In this document: positions 2,683-18,400 of the stretch, in pieces
Layout of the letters: the number at the start of each line of letters is the position of its first letter
Position numbering within the stretch: position 1 is the first letter of the stretch
DNA from: Schaalia odontolytica
Lineage (GTDB): Bacteria > Actinomycetota > Actinomycetes > Actinomycetales > Actinomycetaceae
Length of the DNA stretch: 32,000 nucleotides
Assembly (NCBI RefSeq): GCF_005696695.1
Contig: NZ_CP040006.1
Span: forward strand, 330,001 to 362,000
Reading direction: 5' to 3'
Program-made: the position numbers and the translations under genes
The notes under the pieces: generated by a model
Databases searched by the model: none
What the model was told of the DNA's origin: nothing
Seen by the model: the letters and a program-made list of their open reading frames with translations, nothing else

Positions 2683-3507
2683 TCAGACGTTCTGCAAAGC
2701 TCCCTGCATGGCGAACATCAGGCCCACCATGATCGAGTTATTGAGCGCGTGGAACAGCCACGAGTACGCCACGTTCTTCCCGGACATCACGTACACGAGC
2801 GTCAGGACGATGCTGATGGGCAGGTATGTGAAGAAGTCCTGCCACTGGTGAGAATGCATGTACGCAAACAGCGCCGCGGAGATTGAAGCGACGAGCCACG
2901 TCGGCGCGTATGCGCTGAGCTTGCCGATGAGGATGTGGCGGTAGAAAATCTCCTCGACCATGGGCACCCCGATGGCGACGAAGAAGCAGAAGATGAGTCC
3001 CGTGCCGCCGTCAAAAATTGCGTTGATGACGGCCTGCTGGTTATCGGCGACCGGCGGGTTGAGCCCGTAGAGGGCGATGCGGGTCGCGGCCTGGACGATG
3101 ACGACCAGGATCCACAGGCCGAAAAGCAGCAGGACCTTCAAGAAGGGGCGCGTGCGCAGATAGGAAAACGCGGGGAAAAACTCGCGCGAAAAAAGTGCCA
3201 GGACGATGATCAGGAAGACCGTGTCGACAGCGAGATTGATGGCCGTCAGGTTCCACGACTCGGGGAAGAGGAACATGGGAACGGCGCCCAGCAGGAAGAA
3301 CGCGGCGTAGGGGATGCCGAAGATCGCGATGCGCACCCAGTCCGCGCGGGTCGGGCGCTCAGGGGACGAGGCCGGGACTGCCTCGCTCGAAACAGCCTCG
3401 CCGGGCAGGGGGAGGGGAGCGGTGGACACGGGGCCCTGCGGGCCTGTGTTCGTCACGAGAGAATCTGCCGCCTCGCTCAGGGGCTGTGTATTCGGGTTGG
3501 TTGCCAT
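2683..3507 (-). CDS. CPBP family intramembrane glutamic endopeptidase (CAAX protease/Abi-like), paralog 1
   Basis: Has the three CPBP motifs: EEIFYRH (EExxxR), FAYMHSH (FxxxH) and FHALNN (HxxxN). Multiple hydrophobic helices and a Pro/Ser-rich ~65-aa N-terminal tail. The ATG at 3507 aligns with the paralog start. Confidence 0.88.
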   Translation of the reverse strand: MATNPNTQPLSEAADSLVTNTGPQGPVSTAPLPLPGEAVSSEAVPASSPERPTRADWVRIAIFGIPYAAFFLLGAVPMFLFPESWNLTAINLAVDTVFLIIVLALFSREFFPAFSYLRTRPFLKVLLLFGLWILVVIVQAATRIALYGLNPPVADNQQAVINAIFDGGTGLIFCFFVAIGVPMVEEIFYRHILIGKLSAYAPTWLVASISAALFAYMHSHQWQDFFTYLPISIVLTLVYVMSGKNVAYSWLFHALNNSIMVGLMFAMQGALQNV

Positions 3508-3662: not shown

Positions 3663-4463
3663 CTAGACGAGGGACCTGACAATGAGCATGATCGAGTTGT
3701 TCAGCGCGTGGAACGTCCACGAGTATGCGACGTTCTTCCCGGACTTCACGTACACGAGCGTCAAGACGATGCTCAGCGGCAGGTACATGAAGAAGTCCTG
3801 CCACTGGTGAGAGTGCATGTACGCAAAAAGCGCCGCTGAGATCGACGCGACGAGCCATGTGGGCGCGTACGCGCTGAGCTTGCCGATGAGGATGTGGCGG
3901 AAGAACATTTCCTCGATGACGGGCACTCCAATGCCGACGAAGAAGGTGAAGACGATGCCGAGAGCCCCGTCATTCAGAAGGTTCATGACCTGCTGCTGGT
4001 TTTCGGCAATCGGTTGGTTGTGTCCGTAGAGGGCGATGCGGGTTACTGCCTGAATGGCGGTGACCAGGAACCATAGGCCGAAGAGGAGCGCGATCTTGCG
4101 TACGGGCCGCGTGCGCAGGTAGGTGAAAGCGGGGAAGAACTCGCGCCAGAAGAATGCGAGCGCCATGATCAGCAAGATGGTGTCGAGCCCGATGTTGATA
4201 GCGGTCAGGCTCCACGATGCGGGGAAGATCCATGTCGGCACTCCCACCAGGAAGAACGCCGCATAGGGGATGCCGAAGATCGCGATGCGCACCCAGTCCG
4301 CGCGCGTCGGGCGCTTGGGGGACGAGTCCGTGGCCGCCTCGCTCGAAACCGATTCGCCGGGTAGGGGGAGGGGAGCGGCGGACACGGGGCCCTGCGGGCC
4401 TGTGTTCGTCACGAGAGAATCTGCCGCCTCGCTCAGGGGCTGTGTATTCGGGTCGGTTGTCAT
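3663..4463 (-). CDS. CPBP family intramembrane glutamic endopeptidase (CAAX protease/Abi-like), paralog 2
   Basis: Motifs EEMFFRH, FAYMHSH and FHALNN. The track ORF extends to 4604. The ATG at 4463 (MTTDPNTQPLSEAADSLVTNTGPQGPV) aligns residue-for-residue with the paralog 1 start and is preceded by GGAAGAGGAAACC. Confidence 0.85.
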   Translation of the reverse strand: MTTDPNTQPLSEAADSLVTNTGPQGPVSAAPLPLPGESVSSEAATDSSPKRPTRADWVRIAIFGIPYAAFFLVGVPTWIFPASWSLTAINIGLDTILLIMALAFFWREFFPAFTYLRTRPVRKIALLFGLWFLVTAIQAVTRIALYGHNQPIAENQQQVMNLLNDGALGIVFTFFVGIGVPVIEEMFFRHILIGKLSAYAPTWLVASISAALFAYMHSHQWQDFFMYLPLSIVLTLVYVKSGKNVAYSWTFHALNNSIMLIVRSLV

Positions 4464-4486
4464 GGGTGGTTTCCTCTTCCTGTCGA

Positions 4487-4514
4487 AAATTAGACCGCCC
4501 GAATATTTTGTCAG
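4487..4514 (-). promoter_or_regulatory. candidate promoter of CPBP paralog 2
   Basis: The minus strand reads CTGACA-N16-TAATTT, ~25 nt upstream of the start codon. Confidence 0.3.
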
Positions 4515-4678
4515 ATCTTGACCTGATGGGGTGGGCGTGTGGTTGAACTGTGAGACATTAGAAATCCTGGATATTGCGCCACTTTTATGGCATCGTGTCA
4601 GCAAGCGATCATCCTGGGTCCTTAGTCCCTCAACGGGGCTATGTCCCCGCGCTAGGCACCGTCACGGCATGGTCACAA

Positions 4679-4692
4679 TTTAGGACGACCTA
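4679..4692. promoter_or_regulatory. candidate operator palindrome upstream of the iron-uptake operon
   Basis: TTAGGACGACCTAA is a TTAGG/CCTAA inverted repeat, ~100 nt upstream of the proposed FTR1 start. The arms match the outer pentamers of DtxR/IdeR-type iron boxes, but the spacing is not canonical. Confidence 0.25.
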
Positions 4693-4793
4693 AACAGACT
4701 GCTTTTCACCTGGGTGAGATGTGGCTACGCTCAATGCTTAGGAATTCCATCATCCCGGCGTTGCCTAATCGCCGGATCCACAGGAGGCAAGCG

Positions 4794-6452
4794 GTGACAG
4801 TGCTTCGCGCTCACGCGCATAGTATTCGCGCTCACGTACACAACATCGGTCAGCGACTCAGCCGCGTCCTCATCGTCGCCGTGATGGCGGCTCTGGCCGT
4901 GGCGATGTTCGCCTCGCCCTCGCGCGCCGCGGATCAGACGTGGAGCGATGTTTCGACCACGATCAATGGCCTGATCGACGAAGGTGTGTCCACCTTCAAG
5001 GCGGGCGACGCTAAGGGCGGCAAGGACAAAGTCAACGACGCCTACTACAAGCACTACGAGATCACCGGCATGGAGAAGCAGGTCATGGCCCGCATCTCCG
5101 GCTCGCGCGTCTCCCAGGTGGAGATGGAGTTCTCCCTCCTGAAGAAGGCCATGAGTGACGCCGACAGTGCGGGCGTCGATAGTCACGCTACGACCCTCAA
5201 GCAGTACATGGTCGAAGACGGCGCGTCCCTGGATGGCGTCGCCCCCGGGTCGGCAGCCCAGGCCTCGTCGGATGATTACAGCCCCGGCGCGTGGGGTGAG
5301 GTCGCCAAGACGATCAACGGCATCCTCGAAGACGGCGCCAACGCCTACAAGGGCGGCGACGCCAAGGCCGGTAAGGACAAGGTCAACGAGGCCTACTACA
5401 AGCACTACGAGATCACTGGCATGGAGAAGCAGGTCATGAGCCGCATCTCCGGTTCGCGCGTCTCGCAGGTGGAGATGGAGTTCTCTCTCCTCAAGAAGGC
5501 CATGACCGACGACGACTCGGCCGCGGTCGACCAGCACCTCTCGACGCTGACGAACTACATCCGCGAGGATGCCAACAGCCTTGACGGCTACACCGGCAAG
5601 GCCGCCGACAAGACTACTGACAGCTCGGGCACCTCCCCGTGGATCGCCCAGTTCCTGCCCTCCCTCCTCGTCATCCTGCGCGAGGGCATGGAGGCGATCC
5701 TGGTCGTCGCCGCCGTCCTGGCCTACCTGTCCAAGGCCGGCCACAAGAACAAGGCCCCCATCGTGTGGGGCGGCGTGGCCCTCGCCCTCGCCCTGTCCGT
5801 GGGCCTGGCCTTCCTCTTCAGCTACGTGACCTCCCTGGCGGGCGCCAACCAGGAGCTCCTCGAGGGCTTCGCCGCGCTCTTCGCGGTCGTCATGCTGATC
5901 TGGGTCTCCAACTGGATGATCAACAAGTCCTCCAACAAGGCCTGGGATGACTACATCAAGAAGCAGACGGACGCCTCGCTGACCAGCGGCTCCCTGCTGG
6001 GCCTGGCGTTCATCTCCTTCCTCGCGGTCCTGCGCGAGGGCGCCGAGACGATGCTCTTCTACGTGCCGATCGTCGCGGCTGCGGGCGACAAGGTCCACTA
6101 CGTGTGGATCGGCCTGGCGGTCGGCCTCGTGGCCCTGGTCATCATCTACCTGCTCATCCAGTTCGCAGCGGTGCGCATTCCGCTGCGCCCCTTCTTCACC
6201 GTCACCTCGCTGCTGATGGCCTTCATGGCCTTCACCTTTACGGGTGCCGGTATCGGGGAACTCCAGGAGGCGGACGTCGTGTCCCTGACGCCCATCTCCG
6301 GCTTCCCCACCATTGACCTCTTGGGGATCTACCCCCGAGTGGAGAACCTGGCCGCGCAAGCCATCGTTCTCGCCATCATCGTCGGTCTCTATTTCTTCGG
6401 AAAAGCTCGCCTCGCCCGCGAGGCCGCCGCCCAGTCGCGGGCTGGGGAATGA
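4794..6452 (+). CDS. FTR1/EfeU-family iron permease with a duplicated extracytoplasmic N-terminal domain
   Basis: Two REGxE motifs (LREGMEAILVV, LREGAETMLFY) lie in a polytopic C-terminal half. The N-terminal half has a signal-like segment (VAVMAALAVAMFASPSRA) and two ~95-aa repeats. The start is placed at GTG 4794, 6 nt after AGGAGG (4782-4787). The track start ATG 4719 is the alternative. Confidence 0.85.
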   Translation: MTVLRAHAHSIRAHVHNIGQRLSRVLIVAVMAALAVAMFASPSRAADQTWSDVSTTINGLIDEGVSTFKAGDAKGGKDKVNDAYYKHYEITGMEKQVMARISGSRVSQVEMEFSLLKKAMSDADSAGVDSHATTLKQYMVEDGASLDGVAPGSAAQASSDDYSPGAWGEVAKTINGILEDGANAYKGGDAKAGKDKVNEAYYKHYEITGMEKQVMSRISGSRVSQVEMEFSLLKKAMTDDDSAAVDQHLSTLTNYIREDANSLDGYTGKAADKTTDSSGTSPWIAQFLPSLLVILREGMEAILVVAAVLAYLSKAGHKNKAPIVWGGVALALALSVGLAFLFSYVTSLAGANQELLEGFAALFAVVMLIWVSNWMINKSSNKAWDDYIKKQTDASLTSGSLLGLAFISFLAVLREGAETMLFYVPIVAAAGDKVHYVWIGLAVGLVALVIIYLLIQFAAVRIPLRPFFTVTSLLMAFMAFTFTGAGIGELQEADVVSLTPISGFPTIDLLGIYPRVENLAAQAIVLAIIVGLYFFGKARLAREAAAQSRAGE

Positions 6453-6508
6453 CACCCCCGAGCGACACCGACGTTTCACCCAACCAACACGCACAGGAGA
6501 TCATCACT

Positions 6509-7141
6509 ATGAAGCGCTCTCTGTTCCGCGTCGGCGCGGCCCTGGCCACGCTGGCCCTCGCAGGCACCCTGGCTGCCTGCTCCAACAACTCCTCCTCGTC
6601 CTCCAGCGAGAAGCCGTCGACCTCGTCCTCGGCCGCCGCTGACTCTGCCGCTCCCGCCCCCGGCGAGGACGCTGGCTTCGAAGAGCAGCCCCTCGGTGAC
6701 GAGGTCCACGTCGGCCCCCTCGTCGTGGGTGGCGTCTACTTCCAGCCCGTCGAGATGGAACCCCAGGTGGGCACCCCCGCCGCAGATTCCTCGATGCACA
6801 TTGAGGCCGACATCGCCGCCGCCGCCGACAACAAGCTCGGCTACGGCGCGGGTGACTTCGTCCCCGGCCTGACCGTGGACTACGCGATCAAGGACAAGTC
6901 CGGCACGACCGTCCAGGAGGGCACGCTCATGCCGATGAACGCGTCCGATGGCCCGCACTACGGCCTGAACCTGCCCAAGCTGGACGCCGGCACCTACGAC
7001 GTGTCCTTCATGATCAAGCCCCCCAGCGTGTGGCTGCTGCACACCGACAAGACCACGGGTGTCGAGGGCCGCTTCTGGACCGAGCCGCTCGTCGCCGAAT
7101 TCCCGGATTGGCAGTGGGATCCCACGGCCGTCTCCTGGTGA
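6509..7141 (+). CDS. P19/FtrA/Tp34-family periplasmic iron-transport lipoprotein (Fe2+ transport protein family)
   Basis: Lipobox LAAC after MKRSLFRVGAALATLALAGT. Family-like motifs YFQPVEMEP, MHIEADI and DGPHYGLN. Sits directly after an FTR1 permease, as in known FTR1-P19 pairs. RBS CAGGAG precedes ATG 6509. Confidence 0.8.
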   Translation: MKRSLFRVGAALATLALAGTLAACSNNSSSSSSEKPSTSSSAAADSAAPAPGEDAGFEEQPLGDEVHVGPLVVGGVYFQPVEMEPQVGTPAADSSMHIEADIAAAADNKLGYGAGDFVPGLTVDYAIKDKSGTTVQEGTLMPMNASDGPHYGLNLPKLDAGTYDVSFMIKPPSVWLLHTDKTTGVEGRFWTEPLVAEFPDWQWDPTAVSW

Positions 7142-7160
7142 TCGACGTGCACTCTTCGCG

Positions 7161-7204
7161 GGGCCGAGGCAGTGGTTCTTTGTCGGGACCTCTCGCCTCG
7201 GCCC
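7161..7204 (+). other. intra-operon stem-loop between the P19 gene and the DUF2318 gene
   Basis: 10-bp stem gggccgaggc / gcctcggccc with a ~24-nt loop and no T-tract. It may be an mRNA processing/stability element or a partial terminator. Confidence 0.35.
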
Positions 7205-7277
7205 TCGCCCCGTGAGGGGACTAGAATCGACACCGTAGCTACGACTTCGGTGAACCTTTATTTCGGGAGGAAAGCCA

Positions 7278-8597
7278 ATGCTTCAGCAGATGAGTGAAGC
7301 AACCCTGACGCTGCTATTGACGATGCTCGCGCTCGGCGCCGTCATCCGCTTCATGCCCGCCGCCGGGCGTGGTCGCCGCGGTAAGAAGGCGCGCTCGCTC
7401 GCCGTGTGGGCCGGCATCGGCCTGGGCATGGTCTCCTCCCTGGCCCTGACGATCATTAACGTCGAGGCCCCCAAGTCCGTGAACCGCCAGACGGTTGGCC
7501 TGTTCACCCTCCCCGTCGGGATTCTCCTCGCGGTCCTGTTCCTTGCGCTCATCGCGGTGCGCTCGCGCCGCGTGCGCGCCCTCCTGCCCGGCGACGCCGA
7601 CGACGAGGCCCGGGCGGCCTCGTCAATGGAAACCGCAGTGAGCGGGGATACCCTCGTGCGCATCGTCGGGGCCCTCTACATTGCGGCCGCCCTGTTCCGG
7701 GCCGTTCCGACCGCCATGAACCAGGCCGTCATGATGCTCTCGGGCGGCGTCGAGATCTACTCGACCCCGGTCGTCCTCGCGCTCGTCGGTTACACGCTGG
7801 CATGGGTGCTCGTCTGCTTCGTCGCCTGGGTGTCCTACCGCCTGTGCTCGTGGAACAACCGCGTGTGGCCGGCGGCCTTCATCCTGATCGCCCTGCTGGC
7901 CAACCACTCTCTGATGGTCGTGCGTATCCTCAAGGCCAAGCGCTGGATCTCAACCAGCAAGGAAACATGGGCGGTCATGTCGTGGTTCATCAACCACGAG
8001 GCCGTCTTCACGATCGCCGCTGGCCTGGCCCTGTGTGCTGTGGTGGTCCTGACCTGGCTGGCCTCGCGCTCCATTCCGACCGTCGGGGCAAACCCGGCCG
8101 AGGGGCGCCTGGGTCGCGCGCGCTCGCGCCTCTACAAGTCCATGGCCGGCACCGCCGCCCTCGGCTACCTGTGCGGCGCGCTGCTCATCACCGTCGGCGT
8201 CGCCTACGGCAGCCAGGAGATCGAGCTGTCCCCGCCCGAGTCCTTCAGCGTCGTCGACGACCAGGTGAGCGTCAACCTCGCCGACATCTCGGACGGCCAC
8301 CTGCATCGCTTCGAGTACACGACCTCGGGCGGCGTGAAGGTGCGCTTCATCGTCATCCAGAAGTCCGGCTCCTCCTTCGGCGTTGGCCTGGATGCGTGCG
8401 AGATCTGCGGCCCCTCCGGCTACTACGAGAAGGACGGCAAGGTCATCTGCAAGCTGTGTGAAGTGGCGATGAACATCGCGACCATCGGCTTTAAGGGCGG
8501 CTGCAACCCGATCCCCATCGACTACAAGGTCTCCAACGGCACGCTGACCGTGCCGATCTCCGCCCTCGAGGCCTCGGCCTCCATCTTCGCGAAGTAA
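7278..8597 (+). CDS. DUF2318-type membrane protein with a C-terminal Cys-rich (putative Fe-S/metal) domain
   Basis: Polytopic N-terminal ~300 aa. The C-terminal soluble domain carries CEICGPSGYYEKDGKVICKLCEVAMN...GGCNP. RBS GGGAGGAAAG precedes ATG 7278. It holds the same position as the DUF2318 gene in P19-type loci. Confidence 0.78.
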   Translation: MLQQMSEATLTLLLTMLALGAVIRFMPAAGRGRRGKKARSLAVWAGIGLGMVSSLALTIINVEAPKSVNRQTVGLFTLPVGILLAVLFLALIAVRSRRVRALLPGDADDEARAASSMETAVSGDTLVRIVGALYIAAALFRAVPTAMNQAVMMLSGGVEIYSTPVVLALVGYTLAWVLVCFVAWVSYRLCSWNNRVWPAAFILIALLANHSLMVVRILKAKRWISTSKETWAVMSWFINHEAVFTIAAGLALCAVVVLTWLASRSIPTVGANPAEGRLGRARSRLYKSMAGTAALGYLCGALLITVGVAYGSQEIELSPPESFSVVDDQVSVNLADISDGHLHRFEYTTSGGVKVRFIVIQKSGSSFGVGLDACEICGPSGYYEKDGKVICKLCEVAMNIATIGFKGGCNPIPIDYKVSNGTLTVPISALEASASIFAK

Positions 8598-8606
8598 GGC
8601 TGACGC

Positions 8607-9884
8607 GTGTTTTTCCGAATGCTCCGCGGCGCCCTCACAAGACGCGGCAACCGCCACCTCATGATCGCCCTGACCGTCGCGCTGGGCGCCTGCGTCGCCA
8701 CGTCCATGCTCTCCGTCATGTTCAACGTCGGCGACAAGGTCAACCAGGAACTCAAGTCCTACGGCGCGAACATCGTGGTGCGCCCGCAGGGCGCGGCCGT
8801 CCTCGACGACCTCTATAGCACGGGCGAAGCCACCGAGGCGCGCTCCTACCTGCGCGAGGACGAGCTCGGCAACATCAAGACAATCTTCTGGACGTACAAC
8901 ATCCTCGACTTCGCGCCCCTGCTGAACGTGTCCGCCACCGACGCGTCCGGCGAGCACGTGCCCACGACCGGCACGTGGTTTGGCCACCACCTCGAGCTGG
9001 CCACCGGCGAGAGCGTCGAGACCGGCCTCGACAAGCTGCGCGGCTGGTGGGGCATCGAGGGCTCCTGGCCGGCGGACGACGACGAGGACGGCGTCCTCGT
9101 CGGCACCACCTACGCGGCCGCCCACGGCCTGACGGTCGGCGACACTGTCACCCTCACCCGCGAAGGCATCACCCGCGACTTCACGGTGCGCGGCATCCTC
9201 ACCAGCGGCGACGATGCCGACCGCGGCGTGTTCATTCAGCTTCCGCAGGCCCAGGCGCTCCTGAACCGCGAGGGCGTCGTCGGCAGCGTCGAGGTCTCCG
9301 CTCTGACCACGCCGGACAACGACCTGGCGCGCAAGGCGGCGAAGAACCCGAATTCGCTGAGCGTGTCCGAGAAGGAAACCTGGTACTGCACCGCCTACGT
9401 CTCCTCGATCGCCTTCCAGATCGAGGAAGTCATGACGGACTCTGTGGCCCGCCCGGTCCGCCAGGTCGCCCAGTCCGAAGGCGTCATCCTGGAAAAGACC
9501 CAGCTGCTCATGGTCCTCGTGACCGTCCTGGCGCTCATCGCCTCGGCCCTGGCCATTGCGAACCTGGTGACCGCAGGCGTCATGGAGCGTTCCAGCGAGA
9601 TCGGCCTCATGAAGGCCGTGGGGGCCAAGGACAAGCAGATCATCGCCCTGTTCCTGACCGAAACGGTCATCGTCGGCCTGGTCGGTGGCGTCCTCGGCTA
9701 CGGCGGAGGCCTCGCGCTGGCCCAGGCGATCGGCTACATGGTCTTCCACTCGTCGATCTCCTTCGTGCCCGTCGTCGTCGGCCTCGTCGCCGTCCTCGTC
9801 ATCCTCGTCGTCCTGGGAGCCTCCATCCCGGCGATCCGCTACCTGCTGCGCCTCAACGCGGCGGAAGTCCTGCACGGAAGGTGA
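8607..9884 (+). CDS. ABC transporter permease, FtsX/MacB-type (first of two)
   Basis: N-terminal TM helix, a large extracytoplasmic domain, then the FtsX-domain signature MERSSEIGLMKAVGAKDKQIIALFLTE followed by TM helices. GTG start at 8607. Confidence 0.85.
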   Translation: MFFRMLRGALTRRGNRHLMIALTVALGACVATSMLSVMFNVGDKVNQELKSYGANIVVRPQGAAVLDDLYSTGEATEARSYLREDELGNIKTIFWTYNILDFAPLLNVSATDASGEHVPTTGTWFGHHLELATGESVETGLDKLRGWWGIEGSWPADDDEDGVLVGTTYAAAHGLTVGDTVTLTREGITRDFTVRGILTSGDDADRGVFIQLPQAQALLNREGVVGSVEVSALTTPDNDLARKAAKNPNSLSVSEKETWYCTAYVSSIAFQIEEVMTDSVARPVRQVAQSEGVILEKTQLLMVLVTVLALIASALAIANLVTAGVMERSSEIGLMKAVGAKDKQIIALFLTETVIVGLVGGVLGYGGGLALAQAIGYMVFHSSISFVPVVVGLVAVLVILVVLGASIPAIRYLLRLNAAEVLHGR

Positions 9885-11077
9885 TGCCCATGTCCAGACG
9901 AGCAATGTTCTGGCGGATGGTCACCTCCTCCATCCTGCGCCGCCGCTCCCGCGTCCTCATCGCGATCCTCGCCGTCGCCATCGGCGCGACCACACTGTCC
10001 GGCCTCGTCACGATCGCCGTCGACGTGCCGGCCCAGCTGGCCCGCGAGATCCGCTCCTACGGTGCCAACCTCGTCGTCACCCCCGCCGGGGACGTGCCCA
10101 TCACGGACGAGGCCGTGGCCGCCGCAACCGCCCAGGTGCCCGCAAGCGCTCTGGTCGGATCCGCGGCCTTTGACTACGAGACCGTCACCATCAACGACCA
10201 GCCCTACGTGGCGGGCGGCGCCGACCTGGAGGCCGTGCACGCCATGAACCCGTACTGGTTCGTGGACGGTGAGTGGCCCGCTGCGACGGGCCAGGTGCTC
10301 GTGGGCGAGCAGGTCGCCTCGACGATCGACGTGAAGGCGGGGGACACGATCACGGTGAGCCAGCTGGACGCCGGCGCCTCCTCGAAGGGTGCGCAGGTGC
10401 AGTCCGGCGCCCCGGCCTCGGGCCTGAAGGTCGATCCGCGCACCGTCACCCTGACCGTGTCCGGCATCCTCAAGACCGGCGGTAACGAAGACGGCTACGT
10501 GTACATGTCCAGCCAGGACATGAGCGCCCTGACCGGGCAGAGCGGCACCGTGTCGCTCGCCGAATACTCGATCGCACTGGAGGGTGATCAGCTCAGCGCC
10601 ATCGCCGACGCGATGAACGCCGCGAACCCCGACATTCACGCTCAGACCGTGCGCCGCCTCGCCCAGTCCGACACGGGTGTCCTCGCGATGCTGCGCTCCC
10701 TCCTCGTCGTCATCACCGTCATCGTGCTGGCGCTGACCATGATCGGCGTGTCCACCACGATGATCGCCGTCGTCACCGAGCGCCGCAACGAGATCGGCCT
10801 GCGCAAGGCCCTGGGCGCCACCTCCCGATCCATCACCCGCGAGTTCATGGGTGAGGGCGTCATGCTCGGCCTCATCGGCGGAATCCTGGGGGCCGGGGCA
10901 GGCTACGGCCTCGCCGTCCTCATCTCCACCTCCGTGTTCCACCGCTCTATCTCGCTGCACCCCGTCATCCTCCTCGGCACGGTCGCCTGCTCGATCCTCA
11001 TCGCCGTCCTCGCCTGCCTCCCGCCCGTGCGCCGCGCACTGGCCGTCGACCCCGCGCTCGTCCTGCGCGGAGAATGA
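9884..11077 (+). CDS. ABC transporter permease, FtsX/MacB-type (second of two)
   Basis: TERRNEIGLRKALGATSRSITREFMGE plus terminal TM helices. The track ORF starts at 8975 in a frame that overlaps the previous gene. A realistic start is ATG 9884 (overlapping the upstream TGA), or GTG 9881 or ATG 9890 after GGAAGG. Confidence 0.85.
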   Translation: MPMSRRAMFWRMVTSSILRRRSRVLIAILAVAIGATTLSGLVTIAVDVPAQLAREIRSYGANLVVTPAGDVPITDEAVAAATAQVPASALVGSAAFDYETVTINDQPYVAGGADLEAVHAMNPYWFVDGEWPAATGQVLVGEQVASTIDVKAGDTITVSQLDAGASSKGAQVQSGAPASGLKVDPRTVTLTVSGILKTGGNEDGYVYMSSQDMSALTGQSGTVSLAEYSIALEGDQLSAIADAMNAANPDIHAQTVRRLAQSDTGVLAMLRSLLVVITVIVLALTMIGVSTTMIAVVTERRNEIGLRKALGATSRSITREFMGEGVMLGLIGGILGAGAGYGLAVLISTSVFHRSISLHPVILLGTVACSILIAVLACLPPVRRALAVDPALVLRGE

Positions 11078-11871
11078 GAGTCACCATGACCACCTCCACT
11101 GCCACCCCGGCCTCGTCGGCCTCCACCGACGCGCTGCTGAGCCTCGAGGGCGTCTCCAAGATCTACGGGGACCTGCACGCCCTCGACAACGTGTCCCTCG
11201 AGATCCCGCGCGGCCAGTGGGTCTCAATCGTCGGACCCTCCGGCTCCGGCAAGACCACGCTGATGAACATCGTCGGTGCCATGGACACCGCCACGAAGGG
11301 CACCGTCATGCTGGACGGCCACGACATCTCCGACCTGACCGCCGACGAGCTCACCGAGGTGCGCTGCCGCACCATCGGCCTCGTCTTCCAGCAGTTCCAC
11401 CTCATCGGCCACCTGACGGCCCTCGAGAACGTCATGGTCGCCCAGTACTACCACTCGATGCCCGACGAGAAGGAGGCCCTCGAGGCCCTGGACCGCGTCG
11501 GCCTGGCCGACCGCGCCACCCACCTGCCGCGCCAGCTCTCCGGCGGCGAACAGCAGCGCGTGTGCGTGGCCCGCGCCCTCATCAACTACCCCAAGCTGCT
11601 GCTGGCCGACGAGCCCACCGGCAACCTGGACGAAACCAACGAGGAAATCGTCCTCGACCTGTTCAACCAGCTCCACCAGGACGGCACGACCCTCATGGTC
11701 GTCACCCACGACGCGCTCGTCGCCGAACAGGGCCAGCGCGAAATCCGACTTGACCACGGCAAGGTCGTCAAAGAAACCTGGCACGACCACGACTTCGAAC
11801 AGCGCGCCTCCGGCCTGGTTCTGCCCGGCCGCGACGGCGACGCACGCAGCGGAAAGGACAAGGTGCGATGA
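11074..11871 (+). CDS. ABC transporter ATP-binding protein (MacB/LolD-like)
   Basis: Walker A GPSGSGKTT, signature LSGGEQQRV, Walker B LLLADEPTGNLD and H-loop VVTHD. ATGA overlaps the upstream stop. An alternative start is ATG 11086. Confidence 0.93.
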   Translation: MRVTMTTSTATPASSASTDALLSLEGVSKIYGDLHALDNVSLEIPRGQWVSIVGPSGSGKTTLMNIVGAMDTATKGTVMLDGHDISDLTADELTEVRCRTIGLVFQQFHLIGHLTALENVMVAQYYHSMPDEKEALEALDRVGLADRATHLPRQLSGGEQQRVCVARALINYPKLLLADEPTGNLDETNEEIVLDLFNQLHQDGTTLMVVTHDALVAEQGQREIRLDHGKVVKETWHDHDFEQRASGLVLPGRDGDARSGKDKVR

Positions 11872-12443
11872 CCACGCCCACCACCCCCGATACCCGATCC
11901 CGCTGGGTCGCCCCGGCCTCGTACGCGGTCCTCGGCGCCCTCGGCGCGACGATCCTGGCCGCGTGCACGCCCTCCACCGGCCTGGACATGACCAAGCCCA
12001 TGAGCGACGGCACCTGGACCGCCCAGTCCAACGCCGACGACCAGGGCTCCATCGGCACCATCACCATCACGGTTGAGGGCGGGCGCATCACCGCCACCTC
12101 CTACGAGACGACGCTTGCCGACGGCACCGACAAGGGCGCCGAGTACGGCAAGAACTCCGCGGGCGAAGTCTTCAACGAGGACTACTACAAGAAGGCGCAG
12201 GCCGCCGTCGCCTCCTACCAGGAGTACTCCGACAACCTCACCAAGGTCGGCGACCCCGCCAAGGTCGACGTCATCACCGGCGCCACCGTCGCCCACCAGC
12301 AGTTCGTGCAGGCCGCCATCCGCGCCATCGCCGCGGCCCAGGGTGTCTCCCCGGACGGCGCCGACGACATCAATATCCCCGGCCTGAAAGACGCCACCAA
12401 GGACGGCGACCTCGACAAGGACCTCGGAGGCTCCGACGGCTGA
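11868..12443 (+). CDS. FMN_bind-domain lipoprotein (predicted flavinylation substrate)
   Basis: Lipobox ILAAC in the N-terminal signal. Flavinylation-type motif DVITGATVAH, which fits the [S/T]GAT pattern of NqrC/RnfG/PplA-type FMN_bind domains. ATGA overlaps the ATPase stop. Confidence 0.8.
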   Translation: MTTPTTPDTRSRWVAPASYAVLGALGATILAACTPSTGLDMTKPMSDGTWTAQSNADDQGSIGTITITVEGGRITATSYETTLADGTDKGAEYGKNSAGEVFNEDYYKKAQAAVASYQEYSDNLTKVGDPAKVDVITGATVAHQQFVQAAIRAIAAAQGVSPDGADDINIPGLKDATKDGDLDKDLGGSDG

Positions 12444-12465
12444 GCCCGCGCGCTGTGCTGGCTCT

Positions 12466-13647
12466 GTGGGCGGCCCGGGGGACGAGGCCGTGGCCGGGTC
12501 TCCGGGGGTAGCGCCCACGTGGCGTTCGTCCTTCCCCGCGATGGGGACCCGCGTCGACATCATCGGCTGGGGCGGGGACGGCATGGCGATCGTCAACGCT
12601 GTTGTGGGTGTCGTCGCGCGCCACGAGGACACGTGGAGCGTATTCCGGCCTTCCTCCGAGGTGTCGCGGCTCAATGATGTAGTCGCTTCGACTGGGGGCG
12701 GCGGTGGTGTGTCCCGTTGTGGGGCCGATTCCGCGGTGGCTGGCCCCGGCCTCGTCGTCAGCGAAGAAACCGACCGGCTGCTGCGTGACGCGCTCGCGCT
12801 CGCGGAGGCGACCGGGGGAGCGTTCAACCCGCTGATCGGGCCGCTCGTTGCCGCCTGGGACGTCAAAGCGATGCGGGCCGCGTACGTCGCGGGTGCGCCC
12901 TTGCCGCCCGCGCCGTCTGAGCGCGTTGTGGAGGCGGCGTTGCGGGCGTCGTCGTGGGGCTTGCTGTCGCGCGTTGGCGAGCGGCGGTGGGCGATGGGTA
13001 CCCCTGCTGAGTGCGTGGGTGGTGTGGATGTTCCCAGCCCGAGCCTCGACCTGGGCGGCATCGCGAAGGGATACACCGCCGACGCGTGCCGCGACTTGGC
13101 AGTGGCCATGGGGGCGCGTGGCGTGTTGGTGTCGGTGGGGACCTCGTCGGTGTCGGTGTATGGGACTCGCGCCGACGGTTCGTCGTGGCGCGCGGGCCTG
13201 CGAGACCCTCATGGTGGGCCCACGTCGGTCGCTGGCGTCGTGGAGCTGCCTGCGGGCGGCATGGCGTCCCTGTCGACGTCCGGGGATAACCTGGGGCCGC
13301 TGGGTGGGGTTCGCGGTGTCGGTGCGGGGCGTGCGTCGGGGCCTCTGGTGGGGCCTGCGGCTGGTTCTGTGGAAGATCGTCGCGCGCGTGAAACATGGCG
13401 TGAAACAGCTGCGGGTGGCGGTCGGATTTTCGACCACCACATCATCGACCCACGCACGGGATACCCCGCGAGTGCGGGCGTTCGACAAGTCAGCATCGTG
13501 GCCTCGTCGGGTGTACTGGCGGAGGCCCTGTCGACGGCGCTGCTCGTCGATCCGTCCATCGATGTTTCGGACGTCGCTGCCCGCTGGGCCCGCGTGACGG
13601 GTGCCCCGGCCTCGGCGAAGGTTGTGGGCCTGGTGCGTGCGGGGTGA
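12466..13647 (+). CDS. apbE: FAD:protein FMN transferase (ApbE family)
   Basis: ApbE motifs FPAMGT, FNPLIGPLVAAWD, LDLGGIAKGYTAD and HHIIDPRTGYP. The only in-frame start upstream of the conserved FPAMGT block is GTG 12466. No signal peptide is evident. Confidence 0.85.
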   Translation: MGGPGDEAVAGSPGVAPTWRSSFPAMGTRVDIIGWGGDGMAIVNAVVGVVARHEDTWSVFRPSSEVSRLNDVVASTGGGGGVSRCGADSAVAGPGLVVSEETDRLLRDALALAEATGGAFNPLIGPLVAAWDVKAMRAAYVAGAPLPPAPSERVVEAALRASSWGLLSRVGERRWAMGTPAECVGGVDVPSPSLDLGGIAKGYTADACRDLAVAMGARGVLVSVGTSSVSVYGTRADGSSWRAGLRDPHGGPTSVAGVVELPAGGMASLSTSGDNLGPLGGVRGVGAGRASGPLVGPAAGSVEDRRARETWRETAAGGGRIFDHHIIDPRTGYPASAGVRQVSIVASSGVLAEALSTALLVDPSIDVSDVAARWARVTGAPASAKVVGLVRAG

Positions 13648-13714
13648 TGAACGAGCAGTTGATACGTGGATGGGCCTGGGATGGGAAATGCTTGGTGCAA
13701 GGGTCAACCTGATC

Positions 13715-13802
13715 GGGAACATTCAACCTGATCGGGAAGATTCAACCCGATCAGAAGAGGTTGAACCTTACCGATCGGGTGTAACGCCTCATCGGTAACA
13801 AG
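13715..13802 (+). repeat. left copy of an ~88-nt direct repeat flanking the endonuclease cassette
   Basis: Contains 18-nt tandem units (tcaacctgatcgggaaNat) followed by two hairpins (ttcaacc...ggttgaa; ttaccgat...atcggtaa). About 4 mismatches to the copy at 15064-15151. One extra 18-nt unit lies at 13704-13721. Confidence 0.9.
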
Positions 13803-13885: not shown

Positions 13886-15064
13886 ATGTTTTCCACAGGG
13901 GCAGCCGTTCTAGGTGAGGTACTTTCGTCGTGCTGCGATCATCCACATATGAGTGACAATCAGCTGACCGTTATTCGTTCATCGTCGGGCTGTCGAATTC
14001 CTCGCGATATGCAAGATACATGCGTGTATCTACACATCATGAAGGGGTGCTACGTACGCGTCGACGATGCTCAATTCCTGAGTTCGCGATGGGCTGTCTG
14101 GGAAGCCGTGTCACGAGCACGACTGTTGGCTGTGCAGCATGCGGGGAGTGAAGATCGTGTCTTCATCGGAGCCAGTGCGCTCGTTGCTCGAGGTATTCCG
14201 TTGTGGGAAGCGAACCCCGATGTTTGCGTCTGGGCTCCTTCGCGGCGTGGGCACAAATCGCTGCGCGCAGTCCAAGCGGAGGCTGTTCGGGTGCCTGCCG
14301 TCTCGGTCCGGTGGAGCGTCGTGCCACCCAATGCGCCGGAGCTTGAGCAAGTAGAGGGCATCACCGTCGAAGGAATCGTTGATGCTGGAGTGCGCATGGC
14401 TCTCTTCTCTGAACACTTAAGTGCCTTCGTGGCGCTCTGTATGCTGCTCAATCGGCAGTCGCAATTTTCAGTGTTTACGCAGGACGTGGACCGGCAACGT
14501 TCGGATTCTCTGCGGGAAAACATGCTGGCAAGGCTCGAAGAACGTGCGACAGACAAAGAAACTATCCCCTTCCGGAGAGCTAAACGCCTGATAGCCGCCG
14601 CTGACCCGGGCTGCGAGAACCCTGCTGAGGCCGCTCTTCTGTGGGTGGTGAAGTCGGTGAGCGCGTTCGAGGTCGTGACCCAGTTTGAGATCGTCGTCAA
14701 CGGGAGGCGTTATTTTGCGGACATCGCTATTCCGGGACTCATGATCATCTTCGAGTTCGATGGGATTGGAAAGCTTGGAAAGAACGAAGCCGACTTCGCT
14801 CGGGCGAAGCGTGACTGGATCCAGCGCGAAAACGACTTGCGTAGTGCCGGCTGGACCATCTATCGATTCTCGTGGCCAGATTATGAGGATCTGGCGCAAC
14901 TGAGGTCCTTGGTAAGTGAGCTGTTGGGGCCTTTCCAATCCGTGATCCCATCCTCGGCTCAGGGCCTGTGGGCGAAACCCTCGCCGGCGTGTGATGGACC
15001 GGAGCGTCGGTTCCATATGGCTGCCAATCGTTGGGGAACCGCGCGAGAGGATTACACCCGTTAG
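13886..15064 (+). CDS. DUF559/Vsr-like (PD-(D/E)xK fold) endonuclease-domain protein
   Basis: The C-terminal block ENPAEAALLW...YFADIAIPGLMIIFEFDGIGKLGKNEADFARAKRDWIQRENDLRSAGWTIYRFSW matches the pattern of actinobacterial DUF559-type proteins. Visibly AT-richer than its neighbours. An alternative start is ATG 13949 (MSDNQL...). Neither start has a clear RBS. Confidence 0.7.
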   Translation: MFSTGAAVLGEVLSSCCDHPHMSDNQLTVIRSSSGCRIPRDMQDTCVYLHIMKGCYVRVDDAQFLSSRWAVWEAVSRARLLAVQHAGSEDRVFIGASALVARGIPLWEANPDVCVWAPSRRGHKSLRAVQAEAVRVPAVSVRWSVVPPNAPELEQVEGITVEGIVDAGVRMALFSEHLSAFVALCMLLNRQSQFSVFTQDVDRQRSDSLRENMLARLEERATDKETIPFRRAKRLIAAADPGCENPAEAALLWVVKSVSAFEVVTQFEIVVNGRRYFADIAIPGLMIIFEFDGIGKLGKNEADFARAKRDWIQRENDLRSAGWTIYRFSWPDYEDLAQLRSLVSELLGPFQSVIPSSAQGLWAKPSPACDGPERRFHMAANRWGTAREDYTR

Positions 15065-15455: not shown

Positions 15456-18400
15456 TCAGTCAGCGTGCCCCGCAAGCAGCGTCGCCAGGTGGACGCCCCC
15501 GCGGCCCGCCAGCTGCGCGGCCTGGGTGCGGCACGAGAAGCCGTCCGCCAGATACACGGCGTCCGGCTTCGCCGACAGGGACGGCAGCAGCGAATGGGAT
15601 GCGACGGCCACAGACAGGTCGTAGTGGCCCGCCTCCATGCCGAAATTCCCGGCCAGGCCACAGCAACCCTCGAGCCGGGTCACACGCGCGCCCAGCGACT
15701 CGAGCAGCGCCTGGTCCACGTCCCACCCCATGACGGAGTAGTGATGGCAGTGCGGCTGCGCGACGATCTCGACGCCCTCCAGGCTCGGCAGGCGACGCTC
15801 GGATGCGGGCACCGCAGACAGCACCTCGGCGAGGGTGCGCGTCGCGGAAGATACGAGCACCGAGCGCGGGTCTTCGGGCAGCAGATCCAGCAGGTCGTCG
15901 CGCAGCACCGCCGTGCACGACGGCTCGACGCCGACGATCGGGATCCCCGACGCCGCGAAAGGCGCAAGAACCCCCAGCAACGACGCCAAGTGCTTCTTCG
16001 CACCCGTCAGCTGACCCGTCGTAATCCACGTGAGGCCGCAGCATGCGTCCGGCGCAACGATCGGCGCGAACCCGTTCGCCTCGAGCACGTCGACGACCGC
16101 GCGCGCACCCGCATCGTCCAGGGTCTGGCTAAACGAGTCCGCCCACACGAGCGCGTACGGCCGCCCGCTGGGGTCGCGCGGCCCGCTCAGGATCGGGGAG
16201 TTCGACGTCGACGAGGCGGTGGCCCCCTCGCGCTCGCGGGTATCGGATACGGCATCCGACGAAGCCGACGCAGGAACGCTGTCCGCCAACAGGGAGCGGC
16301 GGCGAGCCCACGTGGTGAAGGTGCCGGACTGGAGGGCGGGCATGCCTCGTCGAGGATCGAGGCCGATGACGCGGAACGCGAGCGAGCGCAGGGGAGCGAC
16401 CGACATGACGGCGTTCGCGATGCTTGCCAGGCCGGGCACGCGCGCGGTGACGCGGGTGAGGCGAGGCAGCCAGCCAAGCGTGTAGTGGCTGAGGGGGCGC
16501 ATGCGGCCCCGGTAGGTGCGGAACAGCGCTTCGGAGCGGTAGCGGGCCATGTCGACGCCGGCGGGGCAGTCGGCGGAGCAGGCCTTGCAGGCGAGGCACA
16601 GGTCGAGGGCCTCGAGGACCTCGGGGGAGTCGATGGCCTTCACGAGCTGCGAGTTCGCCGCCTCCTGGAGGATGCGGGCCCGCCCGCGGGTCACGTCCTT
16701 TTCCTCGCGCGTGGCCAGGTAGGACGGGCACATGAACGTGCCGGACACTCCCGCGCGGCACTTGCCGACGCCGGTGCAGCGGTGGACGGCGGCCGTGAAG
16801 TCGCCGCCGTCGTGGGTGAAGGCGAAGCCGCCGTCCGCGGGCATGGGGCGCGCGGCGACGCGGCGCAGGCCAAAGTCGAGGGGGTCGACGCCGGGCTGGA
16901 GCTCGAGGGCCCCGCCGGCATTCCGCGCCCGCGCGCGGGAGGCGGCCTCGGCCTCGTCCATGGGGGCGGCGAGCACCCCGGGGTTGAGGAGGTTGTCCGG
17001 GTCGAAGACGTGCTTGACGCGGGCGAACAGGTCGAGCATCTCGGGGGAGTACATGAAGCGCAGGAGCTCGCCGCGGGCGCGCCCGTCGCCGTGCTCGCCG
17101 GAGACGGAGCCGCCGTGGGCGGCGCAGATGCGGGCCGCGGACTGCAGGAAGGCGCGCGAGTGGGCGACGCCCTCCGGGGTGTCGAGCGGCATGGCGAGGC
17201 GCACGTGCACGCAGCCGTCGCCGAAGTGCCCGTACAGGAGCCCGTCGATGTCGAACTCCTCCATGAGGGCGGTGAAGTCGCGCAGGTACGCGCCGAGGTT
17301 TTCGGGCGGGACCGCCGCGTCCTCGAAACCGGGCCAGGCCTGCTGGTCGCCGCCGCCAGCGCCGTCGGGCGGGGTGCGTCCGCCCAGGCCCGCACCGTCG
17401 GCGCGGATCCTCCACAGGGCCGAGGCCTGTGCCCCCGGCGGGTACACGACCGTGTCGATGGCGGCCGAGTCGGTGCACAGGGCGCGTGCGCGCTCCAGGG
17501 AGGCGGTGACGTCTTCGCCGGGGGCGCCGACTTCGACGAGGAGCCAGCCTTCGCCTTCGGGCAGGGCGGGGACGGCGCCGGGGCCCTTGTGGGCGCGCAC
17601 GACGTCGACGAGGCGACGGTCCATGCCCTCCACGGCGAGGGGGGAGTGGGCGAGCAGTGCGGGTACGTCGTCGGCGGCCTCGATCATGGAGCGGTAGCCC
17701 AGGGCGGCGAGCACGGGCGCGTCGGGCAGGGGTACGAGGCGCACGGTGATGGACAGGATGAGGACGAGGGTGCCCTCGGTGCCCGTGAGCATGGCGGCGA
17801 GGTTGCGCCCGCCCTCGGGGGTGAGGTGCTCGAGGGAATAGCCGGAGACTTGGCGCTTGAAGCGGCCGAGTTCGGTTCGGATGGGCGCCAGGTTGGAGTC
17901 GATGAGGGAGGCGAGTCCCGGCACGTCGCTGAGGGCTGCGTCGTGGTCGGTCGTGGCCGTGAAGCGCCGCCCCTGCCCGTCCACGCAGTCGAGGGAGACG
18001 ATGTTGTCGGAGGTGCGCCCCCAGGCGGTCGCGTGCGGGCCGCACGCGTTGTTGGCAACCATGCCGGCGATCGTCGCGCGGTTCTGGGAGGAGGGGTCGG
18101 GGCCGAAGCGTAGGCCGTGCTTCGCGGCCGCGGCCTGGAGGGTGGAGCCGACGCAGCCGGGCTCAACGGTGGCGGTGCGGGCCTCGGGGTCGATGGAGAT
18201 GACGCGGTTCATGTGCCGCGAGAAGTCGAGGACGAGGCCGGGGCCGATCGCGTTGGACGCGCACGAGGTGCCACCGCCTCGGGCGGTGAGGGGGACGCCG
18301 TGGGCGCGGGCGAGGTCGAAGGCTGCGATCGCCTGCTCGGGCGTGCGCGGGAATGCGACGGCTAGGGGCGGGATGCGCGTGAGGCCGGCGTCGGAGGAGT

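Follow-up and report, generated by a model that had tools for sequence, protein, structure and literature searches.

A P19-type iron-uptake cluster of Schaalia odontolytica in which an FMN_bind lipoprotein and an ApbE-family protein without an export signal stand in the place of thioredoxins

Campylobacter jejuni possesses an iron-uptake system, FetMP-FetABCDEF (Cj1658-1665 / CJJ81176_1649-1656), in which the permease FetM and the P19 protein FetP are followed by six further gene products, the last two of which, FetE and FetF, are thioredoxins. Each of the genes fetM, fetP and fetA-D, as well as the fetEF pair, is required under iron limitation, and fetA-D mutants match the fetP phenotype (PMC10783030). 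A comparison of clusters from 33 species found that the seventh gene encodes a thioredoxin in most Proteobacteria and a flavin mononucleotide (FMN)-binding protein in Actinobacteria, Firmicutes, Spirochaetes and Synergistetes, that the DUF2318 gene nearly always occurs together with FTR1-P19, and that the thioredoxin or the FMN-binding protein could furnish electrons outside the cytoplasm for the reduction of ferric iron (Liu et al. 2018, mBio, PMC6083913). A later survey collected 260 P19 clusters with an FMN-binding gene, mostly from Gram-positive organisms, set them against the Gram-negative clusters with their thioredoxins and put forward the same redox role (Méheust et al. 2021, eLife, PMC8238504). 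Clusters entered that survey if at least one of their target genes encoded a signal peptide, and ApbE proteins without a signal were not commented on. Here, we describe a computational analysis of such a cluster, eight genes on the + strand at 4794-13647 of a 32,000-nucleotide (nt) stretch of Schaalia odontolytica DNA (the window). We present evidence that it is the form which the high-affinity iron-uptake system FetMP-FetABCDEF / BfeUO-SifABCDE takes in Actinobacteria. Furthermore, we show that the ApbE-family protein encoded by its last gene belongs to a clade that carries no export signal.

The closest characterised system is BfeUO-SifABCDE of Bifidobacterium breve UCC2003 (Bbr_0221-0227), which shares with the Schaalia cluster the same seven genes; iron limitation induces it, and its P19-type gene is followed by a terminator. 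Its expression is induced by dipyridyl, and transposon Tn5 insertions in any of its genes impair growth with ferrous chelators; SifE, the seventh protein, has a hydrophobic N-terminus and was described as having an "FMN binding domain, possible ferric reductase" (PMC5449479). The apbE gene of B. breve (Bbr_1825) is unlinked to this cluster, unlike the apbE of Schaalia, which is the eighth gene. A Tn5 mutant of Bbr_1825 nevertheless shows the sif pattern, being sensitive to dipyridyl and phenanthroline and normal with ciclopirox, and the authors read apbE as an Fe-S repair factor and SifABCDE as a siderophore/ferrous importer (PMC5449479). Because the function of ApbE has since been established (PMC12052999), we infer that loss of SifE flavinylation is a simpler explanation of the apbE::Tn5 phenotype than a defect in Fe-S repair. 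Reread in this way, the mutant lends genetic support to a flavin module composed of an FMN-binding protein and ApbE. An earlier reading of the Schaalia DNA, made from the letters alone (the sequence-only reading), had proposed to judge such a module by deleting the last two genes and following growth under iron limitation; the phenotypes of the sifE and apbE transposon mutants of B. breve (Lanigan 2017, PMC5449479) are in effect that test, carried out in a relative. Homology to the B. breve proteins was judged from their domain descriptions and from the locus of a Bifidobacteriaceae metagenome-assembled genome (MAG), L041.

The genes of the cluster, with the domain calls obtained by Pfam and NCBIfam searches of the window proteins, are:

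4794-6452, + strand: g1, FTR1/FetM/BfeU-type iron permease (Pfam FTR1 PF03239, 8e-44)
6449-7141, + strand: g2, P19/FetP/BfeO-type copper-dependent iron-binding lipoprotein (Pfam Iron_transport PF10634, 3e-48)
7278-8597, + strand: g3, FetA/SifA-type membrane protein (PF10080 "FtrD-like", formerly DUF2318, 4e-31, residues 337-437)
8607-9884, + strand: g4, FtsX/MacB-type permease FetB/SifB (FtsX 5.5e-19, MacB_PCD 7e-13)
9881-11077, + strand: g5, second FtsX/MacB-type permease FetC/SifC (FtsX 2.9e-19, MacB_PCD 3.8e-9)
11074-11871, + strand: g6, ATP-binding cassette (ABC) ATPase FetD/SifD (ABC_tran 1.5e-35)
11868-12443, + strand: g7, SifE-type FMN_bind lipoprotein (FMN_bind PF04205, 20.6 bits)
12466-13647, + strand: g8, ApbE-family FAD:protein FMN transferase, FAD being flavin adenine dinucleotide (Pfam PF02424, 2e-46)

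All eight genes lie at the coordinates given by the sequence-only reading, and the searches bore out the domains that it had named, the FMN_bind score of g7 falling slightly under the Pfam cut-off. The stop/start overlaps that it had reported at 9884, 11074 and 11868 are real, the junctions reading GTGATG at 9881-9886 (g4/g5), ATGA at 11074 (g5/g6) and ATGA at 11868 (g6/g7). The remaining genes are separated by 9 nt (g3-g4), 22 nt (g7-g8) and 136 nt (g2-g3), and g1 and g2 by 56 nt if P19 starts at 6509 (see below). The proposed identity with the cFtr1-P19/FetMP-type loci is likewise supported, by the domain searches, by the gene order of more than 80 related loci and by the literature: the first six genes are those of C. 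jejuni in the same order, there is a gap after P19 in both clusters, and the seventh gene of both encodes a small membrane-tethered redox protein. The two differ at the end, where genes 7 and 8 encode thioredoxins in C. jejuni and an FMN_bind lipoprotein and an ApbE in Schaalia. As in the P19 clusters of the 2021 survey, P19, FTR1 and an FMN-binding gene occur without a core transmembrane electron-transfer module in the cluster (PMC8238504). The suspicion that comparative surveys had already noted the association of FMN_bind proteins with iron-uptake loci was correct (Liu 2018; Méheust 2021). The sequence-only interpretation is thus essentially right, yet it is already in print at the comparative and genetic level: the exchange of a thioredoxin for an FMN-binding protein has been known since 2018 and 2021 and the B. 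breve homologues were mutated in 2017, and the finding itself adds little.

The DNA is high in G+C (60-73%) and its source group is Schaalia odontolytica, the g7 protein being 95-98% identical to those of loci in assemblies named S. odontolytica, "Actinomyces sp." and Pauljensenia. S. odontolytica is a common commensal of the mouth and gut and an occasional pathogen, and its main high-affinity iron system is therefore of some medical relevance.

The arrangement is conserved well beyond this species. When the window proteins were compared by tblastn with 80 loci retrieved by a g7 profile, 32 complete actinobacterial loci proved colinear over the full gene order. They belong to Schaalia/Pauljensenia/Actinomyces, Flaviflexus, Winkia, Propionibacterium acidifaciens and oral taxon 192, and the Bifidobacteriaceae MAG; a Bowdeniella locus whose contig ends early (L038) has g4-g8 in the same order. 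The order of the core genes is also colinear in 5 Firmicutes-type loci. Genes 1-7 occur in the same order, without an adjacent ApbE, in Pectinatus, a Clostridiales MAG, Peptoniphilus mikwangii and Clostridium aminobutyricum; feoAB adjoins the Peptoniphilus cluster, and a gene for a DtxR-family repressor adjoins that of C. aminobutyricum. The rest of the 80 loci represent PplA-type or other FMN_bind contexts without P19. ApbE follows the FMN_bind gene, on the same strand, in all actinobacterial loci with a long enough contig (40/40). In four of them (L032, L034, L036 and L038) the start of g8 overlaps the stop of g7, an ATG or GTG beginning at the third base of the stop codon in a TGATG-type junction.

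The assignment of g7 to the FMN_bind family was examined closely, its own score of 20.6 bits being just below the Pfam gathering score of 22 bits. Orthologues of g7 score 23.6-40.6 bits; g7 is 44% identical (1e-26) to the product of the seventh gene of the C. aminobutyricum cluster, itself a 40.6-bit match; and a profile of g7 orthologues matches the FMN_bind-type structures PDB 2KZX (2.5e-9) and 3O6U. On these three grounds we place g7 in the family. Additionally, g7 has a partial match to the NCBIfam PplA family (4e-12). An AlphaFold2 model of g7, built from an 8-sequence alignment, had a mean predicted local distance difference test score (pLDDT) of 51 and was too poor for fold comparison. 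Two features of g7 may bear on its predicted flavinylation:

12267-12287, + strand: flavinylation motif D134-V-I-T-G-A-T140, the sole [ST]GA[ST] among the eight proteins
12340-12440, + strand: acidic C-terminal tail behind the FMN_bind domain, G-A-D-x-I-x-I/M-P-G/S-L ... D-L-G-G or D-Y

The flavinylation motif is defined as D-x-x-[ST]-G-A-[ST] (PMC12052999), and D-V-I-T-G-A-T is invariant in the g7 orthologues aligned. We infer that FMN would be covalently attached at Thr140 of g7, which makes the actinobacterial version experimentally convenient, since covalent FMN is fluorescent and easily followed. The acidic tail is present in 14 of the 15 ApbE-linked actinobacterial loci checked, the exception being L041, and is absent from the Firmicutes orthologues. 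g7 carries a lipobox, L-A-A-C, at Cys33, and a signal peptide with a lipobox is found in the g7 of every locus. The n-regions of these signal peptides are rich in arginine: six lineages have Arg-Arg, and the window protein has R-S-R; the P19 proteins of the same loci have Lys-Arg or Lys-Lys. The Arg-rich n-regions weakly hint at export of g7 by the twin-arginine translocation (Tat) pathway. Together, the motif and the domains of g7 and g8 confirm the description of the terminal module as an FMN_bind lipoprotein with a TGAT motif and an ApbE protein in the place of the thioredoxins.

The eighth gene departs from what is expected of the partner of an exported flavoprotein. g8 matches Treponema pallidum Ftp (4IFU, 1.5e-17) and retains DLGGIAKG, HHIIDPRTG, S-T-S-G-D and D-H-H-I-I-D-P. 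It contains low-complexity insertions, and no other gene of the cluster diverges as fast, orthologue identities being 32-92% versus 71-100% for the ATPase. Only 25 residues precede the ApbE domain, and the N-terminus of the protein shows no hydrophobic stretch. Of the actinobacterial loci, 11 were scored: their ApbE frame opens 18-57 codons before the conserved F-P-A-M-G-T, and the maximal 12-residue Kyte-Doolittle score in the translatable region ahead of this motif is at most 1.4. In a few other loci the frame opens up to about 90 codons before it, again without anything hydrophobic. As a control, ApbE proteins encoded beside FMN_bind genes in 14 Firmicutes loci were scored in the same way; 13 of the 14 have a lipoprotein signal, most with scores of 2.6-3.4, two scoring lower owing to the choice of start codon. 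A full HMMER search of 1.84 billion representatives placed g8 in a subfamily whose nearest representative clusters, about 25 in number (E <= about 1e-27), are all without a signal, whereas more distant ApbEs mostly have one. An upstream start or a missed exon that might supply a signal peptide was ruled out, there being no hydrophobic stretch and independent gene calls in the set of representatives being in agreement. A programmed frameshift or a g7-g8 fusion was ruled out as well: the relation of the two frames varies (+1/+2), and most loci have a canonical start after the g7 stop. The sequence-only reading had called g8 the ApbE transferase of g7; the family assignment stands, but the pairing conceals a mismatch of compartments, g8 having no signal peptide.

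We consider it likely that the cluster, taken as a whole, works by a flavin-dependent mechanism that combines assimilatory ferric reduction, repression by metal, expression as two units and flavinylation before export. The g7 flavoprotein would take the place of the proteobacterial thioredoxins FetE and FetF and shuttle electrons singly at the outer surface of the membrane, with the cysteines of g3 and either Fe(III) or the copper site of P19 as the most likely partners. FTR1 would thereby receive iron in a redox state that it can transport, and the process would be one of assimilatory ferric reduction. The cluster would probably be repressed by metal and expressed as two units, FTR1-P19 at the higher level and g3-g8 beyond a hairpin. 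As g8 has no export signal, the cytoplasm would be the most likely site of FMN attachment; FAD is plentiful there, so that no FAD exporter would be needed, and flavinylated g7 could then be exported either folded, through Tat, or unfolded, through Sec. The acidic tail of g7 could serve as a docking site for ApbE. ApbE modifies tags of only seven residues (PMC12052999), and a folded domain is therefore not required for flavinylation. That g7 is flavinylated in the cytoplasm before its export, a route of biogenesis that would be new, is a tentative proposal, to which we attach limited confidence. The signal-less ApbE clade raises the question of where exported proteins are flavinylated in these Gram-positive bacteria, and it is the one element of the cluster that is possibly worth further work.

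Several observations weigh against this mechanism. The operon and its flanks contain no NAD(P)H- or quinone-binding module for electron input, and sequence does not discriminate the direction of electron flow. For the FMN_bind proteins of P19 clusters covalent FMN is a prediction. Upstream of g1 the best score for a binding box of the IdeR/DtxR repressors is only 12/19, which equals background. In the signal-less ApbE clade, Glu replaces throughout the conserved Asp (A-D-A-L-S-T) of the Ser-His-Asp triad, and the catalytic His-His is lost in a few members (P0206, P0207 and P0234, the last being that of the L041 Bifidobacteriaceae MAG). The enzyme and its presumed substrate also appear to belong to different compartments, g7 being an exported lipoprotein and g8 lacking a signal. 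ApbE enzymes normally act outside the cytoplasm. Salmonella ApbE requires a periplasmic location (PMC12052999), and C. jejuni FetE, the protein at the position of g7, resembles a thiol oxidase rather than a reductase (PMC10783030).

The same observations bear on an alternative that we regard as rather unlikely, in which g8 does not flavinylate g7 but acts on a cytoplasmic target or in another flavin role, such as FAD hydrolysis, and g7 is either modified by a different, secreted ApbE or binds FMN non-covalently. The absence of a signal peptide throughout the ApbE subfamily would be explained directly, and the known cytosolic ApbEs serve cytosolic substrates: the cytoplasmic ApbE of Klebsiella pneumoniae, which acts on a soluble fumarate reductase, is signal-less like g8, but its substrate is cytoplasmic (PMC12052999). 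The periplasmic requirement of Salmonella ApbE, the standing of g8 as the least conserved gene of the cluster, the lack of His-His in some clade members and the existence of the Firmicutes and B. breve versions without an adjacent ApbE point in the same direction. Set against them are the invariable position of ApbE behind g7 in the 40 actinobacterial loci, with its stop/start overlap in four; the fact that g7 is the sole protein of the operon with a flavinylation motif; and the B. breve apbE mutant, which phenocopies the sif mutants.

The direction of electron flow might also be the reverse of the one proposed. The flavoprotein would then be an electron sink: copper-loaded P19 would oxidise Fe(II) to Fe(III) on its entry into FTR1 and the electron would pass to FMN and on to the cysteines of g3 or to oxygen, as in the models for yeast Fet3-Ftr1 and Brucella FtrABCD. 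Permeases of the FTR1 family with REXXE motifs are classically coupled to a ferroxidase, as in Fet3-Ftr1. C. jejuni FetE is like thiol-disulfide oxidases, and FetEF promotes the oxidation of substrate in extracts (PMC10783030). The sensitivity of the B. breve sif and apbE mutants to Fe(II) chelators, and not to the Fe(III) chelator ciclopirox, also fits the handling of ferrous iron. Free FMN and flavoproteins, however, have low potentials and reduce ferric iron well; the largely anaerobic life of Schaalia and Bifidobacterium makes the terminal acceptor doubtful; and reduction is the direction favoured by both Liu 2018 and Méheust 2021. We judge the reverse flow to be unlikely and ferric reduction to be the more probable function of the flavin module.

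A third alternative, that g3-g7 form a separate ABC importer for ferrous iron or siderophores beside FTR1-P19, with g7 as a ferric-siderophore reductase (the "Sif" reading of Lanigan 2017), is very improbable: B. breve bfeUO and sifABCDE are indeed two transcription units with different chelator phenotypes, and the gap with its hairpin behind P19 in the window would agree with such a division, but the FtsX/MacB_PCD permeases and the MacB/LolD/FtsE-like ATPase belong to a class whose known members are exporters or mechanotransducers and come without a substrate-binding lipoprotein, the DUF2318 gene is nearly always found with FTR1-P19 (Liu 2018), the seven genes keep one order over five or more phyla, and the C. 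jejuni fetA-D mutants match the phenotype of fetP.

By their domains, g4-g6 make up what is a heterodimeric MacB-type (mechanotransmission-type) ABC machine, the best NCBIfam matches of the g6 ATPase being FtsE, MacB and LolD. The known members of the MacB-type class are exporters or mechanotransducers, not importers. The first permease, g4, is 56-59% identical to homologues from Clostridia, Peptoniphilus and Spirochaetes and has more than 6,000 relatives; this conservation across phyla is far above that of its FTR1, DUF2318 or ApbE partners and suggests strong constraint on the g4 subunit.

Hydropathy predicts eight transmembrane (TM) segments in g3, followed by the C-terminal Cys-rich DUF2318/FtrD-like domain. 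This domain carries the motif CxxC-x13-CxxC-x14-C, at Cys374, Cys377, Cys391, Cys394 and Cys409, in agreement with the motif of Liu 2018 and with that of C. jejuni (CxxC-x13-CxxC-x14/15-C). A strong positive charge marks the loops that follow TM1, TM3 and TM7. From the positive-inside rule and the eight TM segments, the Cys-rich domain is predicted to lie outside the cell, where g7, P19 and the N-terminal repeats of FTR1 are also placed. C. jejuni FetA has an extra YHS domain, and none was detected in g3; no solved structural relative of g3 was found.

The organisation of the cluster into units and its likely control are suggested by two non-coding features:

4680-4693, no strand assigned: TTAGGACGACCTAA, a perfect palindrome some 100 nt upstream of the start codon of g1
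about 7159-7205, + strand: GC-rich stem-loop directly after the P19 stop, inside the 136-nt gap

The minimum free energy of the hairpin is -59.3 kcal/mol, compared with -49.0 +/- 3.6 for shuffled sequences (z = -2.8). Most loci of Schaalia, Propionibacterium, Pectinatus and the Clostridiales have a strong hairpin at this place, so that the position, unlike the sequence, is shared by several families and phyla. The hairpin of the window probably acts as a partial terminator or as an mRNA-stabilising element between a g1-g2 and a g3-g8 unit. A terminator follows bfeO in B. breve, where the cluster forms two transcription units (PMC5449479), and an 82-nt gap is found at the equivalent position after P19 in C. 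jejuni (PMC10783030). Given the conserved position of the hairpin, the C. jejuni gap and the B. breve terminator, it is likely that FTR1-P19 is the more highly expressed unit and that g3-g8 are reached by read-through or from an internal promoter. The sequence-only reading had taken all eight genes for one translationally coupled operon. The overlapping junctions to which it pointed are real; tight coupling throughout does not fit the hairpin-bearing gap after P19 or the two units that B. breve has there. As a side observation, the 7159-7205 hairpin resembles an internal attenuator that splits a cluster into two expression units.

The palindrome TTAGGACGACCTAA is a candidate operator for a metal-dependent repressor. 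It has no second match within the window (0.07 expected), and in the S. odontolytica clade its arms are kept while the 4-nt spacer varies. These arms correspond to the outer ones of the IdeR/DtxR box, with 4 nt between them in the place of 9. The cluster of C. jejuni is regulated by Fur, whereas Actinobacteria use repressors of the DtxR/IdeR type. A canonical 19-bp IdeR/DtxR box was sought in the window and rejected, there being no match at three or fewer mismatches. In more distant relatives, sites of the canonical 19-bp type replace the palindrome: upstream of the FTR1 gene, 8 of 16 such loci agree with the box at 14-16/19 positions, whereas only 0.8% of background windows score at least 14. 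Metal-dependent repression therefore appears likely for the family and plausible here. Rfam and tRNA scans of the window found nothing, and in particular no FMN riboswitch.

The permease g1 begins with a GTG at 4794, seven nt downstream of AGGAGG, and both REXXE motifs are present (REGME at residue 296 and REGAE at residue 414). A signal-anchor and two tandem extracytoplasmic helical repeats of ~110 amino acids (aa) precede the FTR1 membrane domain:

about 4941-5276 and 5292-5624, + strand: internal repeats of g1, ~110 aa each, about 70% identical to each other

Peptoniphilus FTR1 has a single N-terminal domain, to which the repeat unit is homologous (39% identity, 5e-16); no Pfam family and no solved relative of this helical domain were found. 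The copy number varies between loci. The Bifidobacteriaceae MAG, Pectinatus and Clostridiales have a single copy, most Actinomycetaceae and Propionibacteriaceae have two, and one strain of Schaalia turicensis (L028) has four.

The open reading frame (ORF) of g2 begins at 6449, but the true start of P19 is probably the ATG at 6509, because this codon has a Shine-Dalgarno sequence (AGGAG) nine nt upstream, opens a conserved MKRSLF signal peptide and is the only possible start in some relatives. The protein matches the structures 8T7M, Tp34 (2O6C), E. coli FetP (3NRP), FtrA and C. jejuni P19. In an alignment to 8T7M it keeps the ligand motifs H-x-E-A-D, M-P-M and G-P-H-Y-G, and its lipobox is L-A-A-C, with Cys C44.

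Three other known systems resemble parts of the cluster. PplA/FmnB of Listeria monocytogenes likewise combines an FMN_bind lipoprotein with an ApbE-family enzyme, and there flavinylation takes place on the outer face of the Gram-positive membrane. However, 13 of the 14 FmnB-type ApbEs scored as controls carry lipoprotein signals, which g8 does not, and PplA has two FMN_bind domains where g7 has one. A Listeria-type extracellular electron-transfer locus was rejected, since Ndh2, EetA/EetB and DmkA/DmkB do not occur in the 32-kb window. FtrABCD of Brucella and Bordetella and EfeUOB of E. coli and B. subtilis also join a permease of the FTR1 family to a partner outside the cytoplasm that binds iron or has a redox function; FtrA is a P19 homologue. 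Identity with FtrABCD was rejected for the lack of the cupredoxin FtrB and the polyferredoxin FtrD. Identity with EfeUOB was rejected on the NCBIfam EfeU score, 142.9 against a cut-off of 255, and for the lack of EfeO (M75/cupredoxin) and of the DyP peroxidase domains of EfeB.

The DNA on either side of the cluster encodes a PEP-utilising (phosphoenolpyruvate-utilising) enzyme, two CAAX proteases, a DUF559-like ORF and an FAD-oxidase/4Fe-4S protein. The two tandem genes for Rce1-like membrane proteins of the CAAX-protease family (2683-3507 and 3663-4604, - strand, in a region of lower GC, about 60%) lie immediately upstream of the operon and are divergently oriented to it. On the other side, the - strand at 15456-18473 encodes a 1005-aa fusion of FAD_binding_4, FAD-oxidase_C and 4Fe-4S dicluster domains; this protein is of the glycolate-oxidase/D-lactate-dehydrogenase type and has no evident tie to the iron operon. 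The ORF at 13886-15064 was considered as a ninth operon gene and rejected: it follows a 239-nt gap, lies in a stretch of lower GC and has only faint DUF559/restriction-endonuclease-like matches. A tandem repeat with a unit of 19 bp, TCAACCTGATCGGGAACAT, in 2.6 copies with a 93% match, occupies 13704-13752, a short way downstream of ApbE. It marks the edge of the lower-GC stretch (58-64% GC, 13-15 kb) that holds this ORF and that may be a small foreign insertion.

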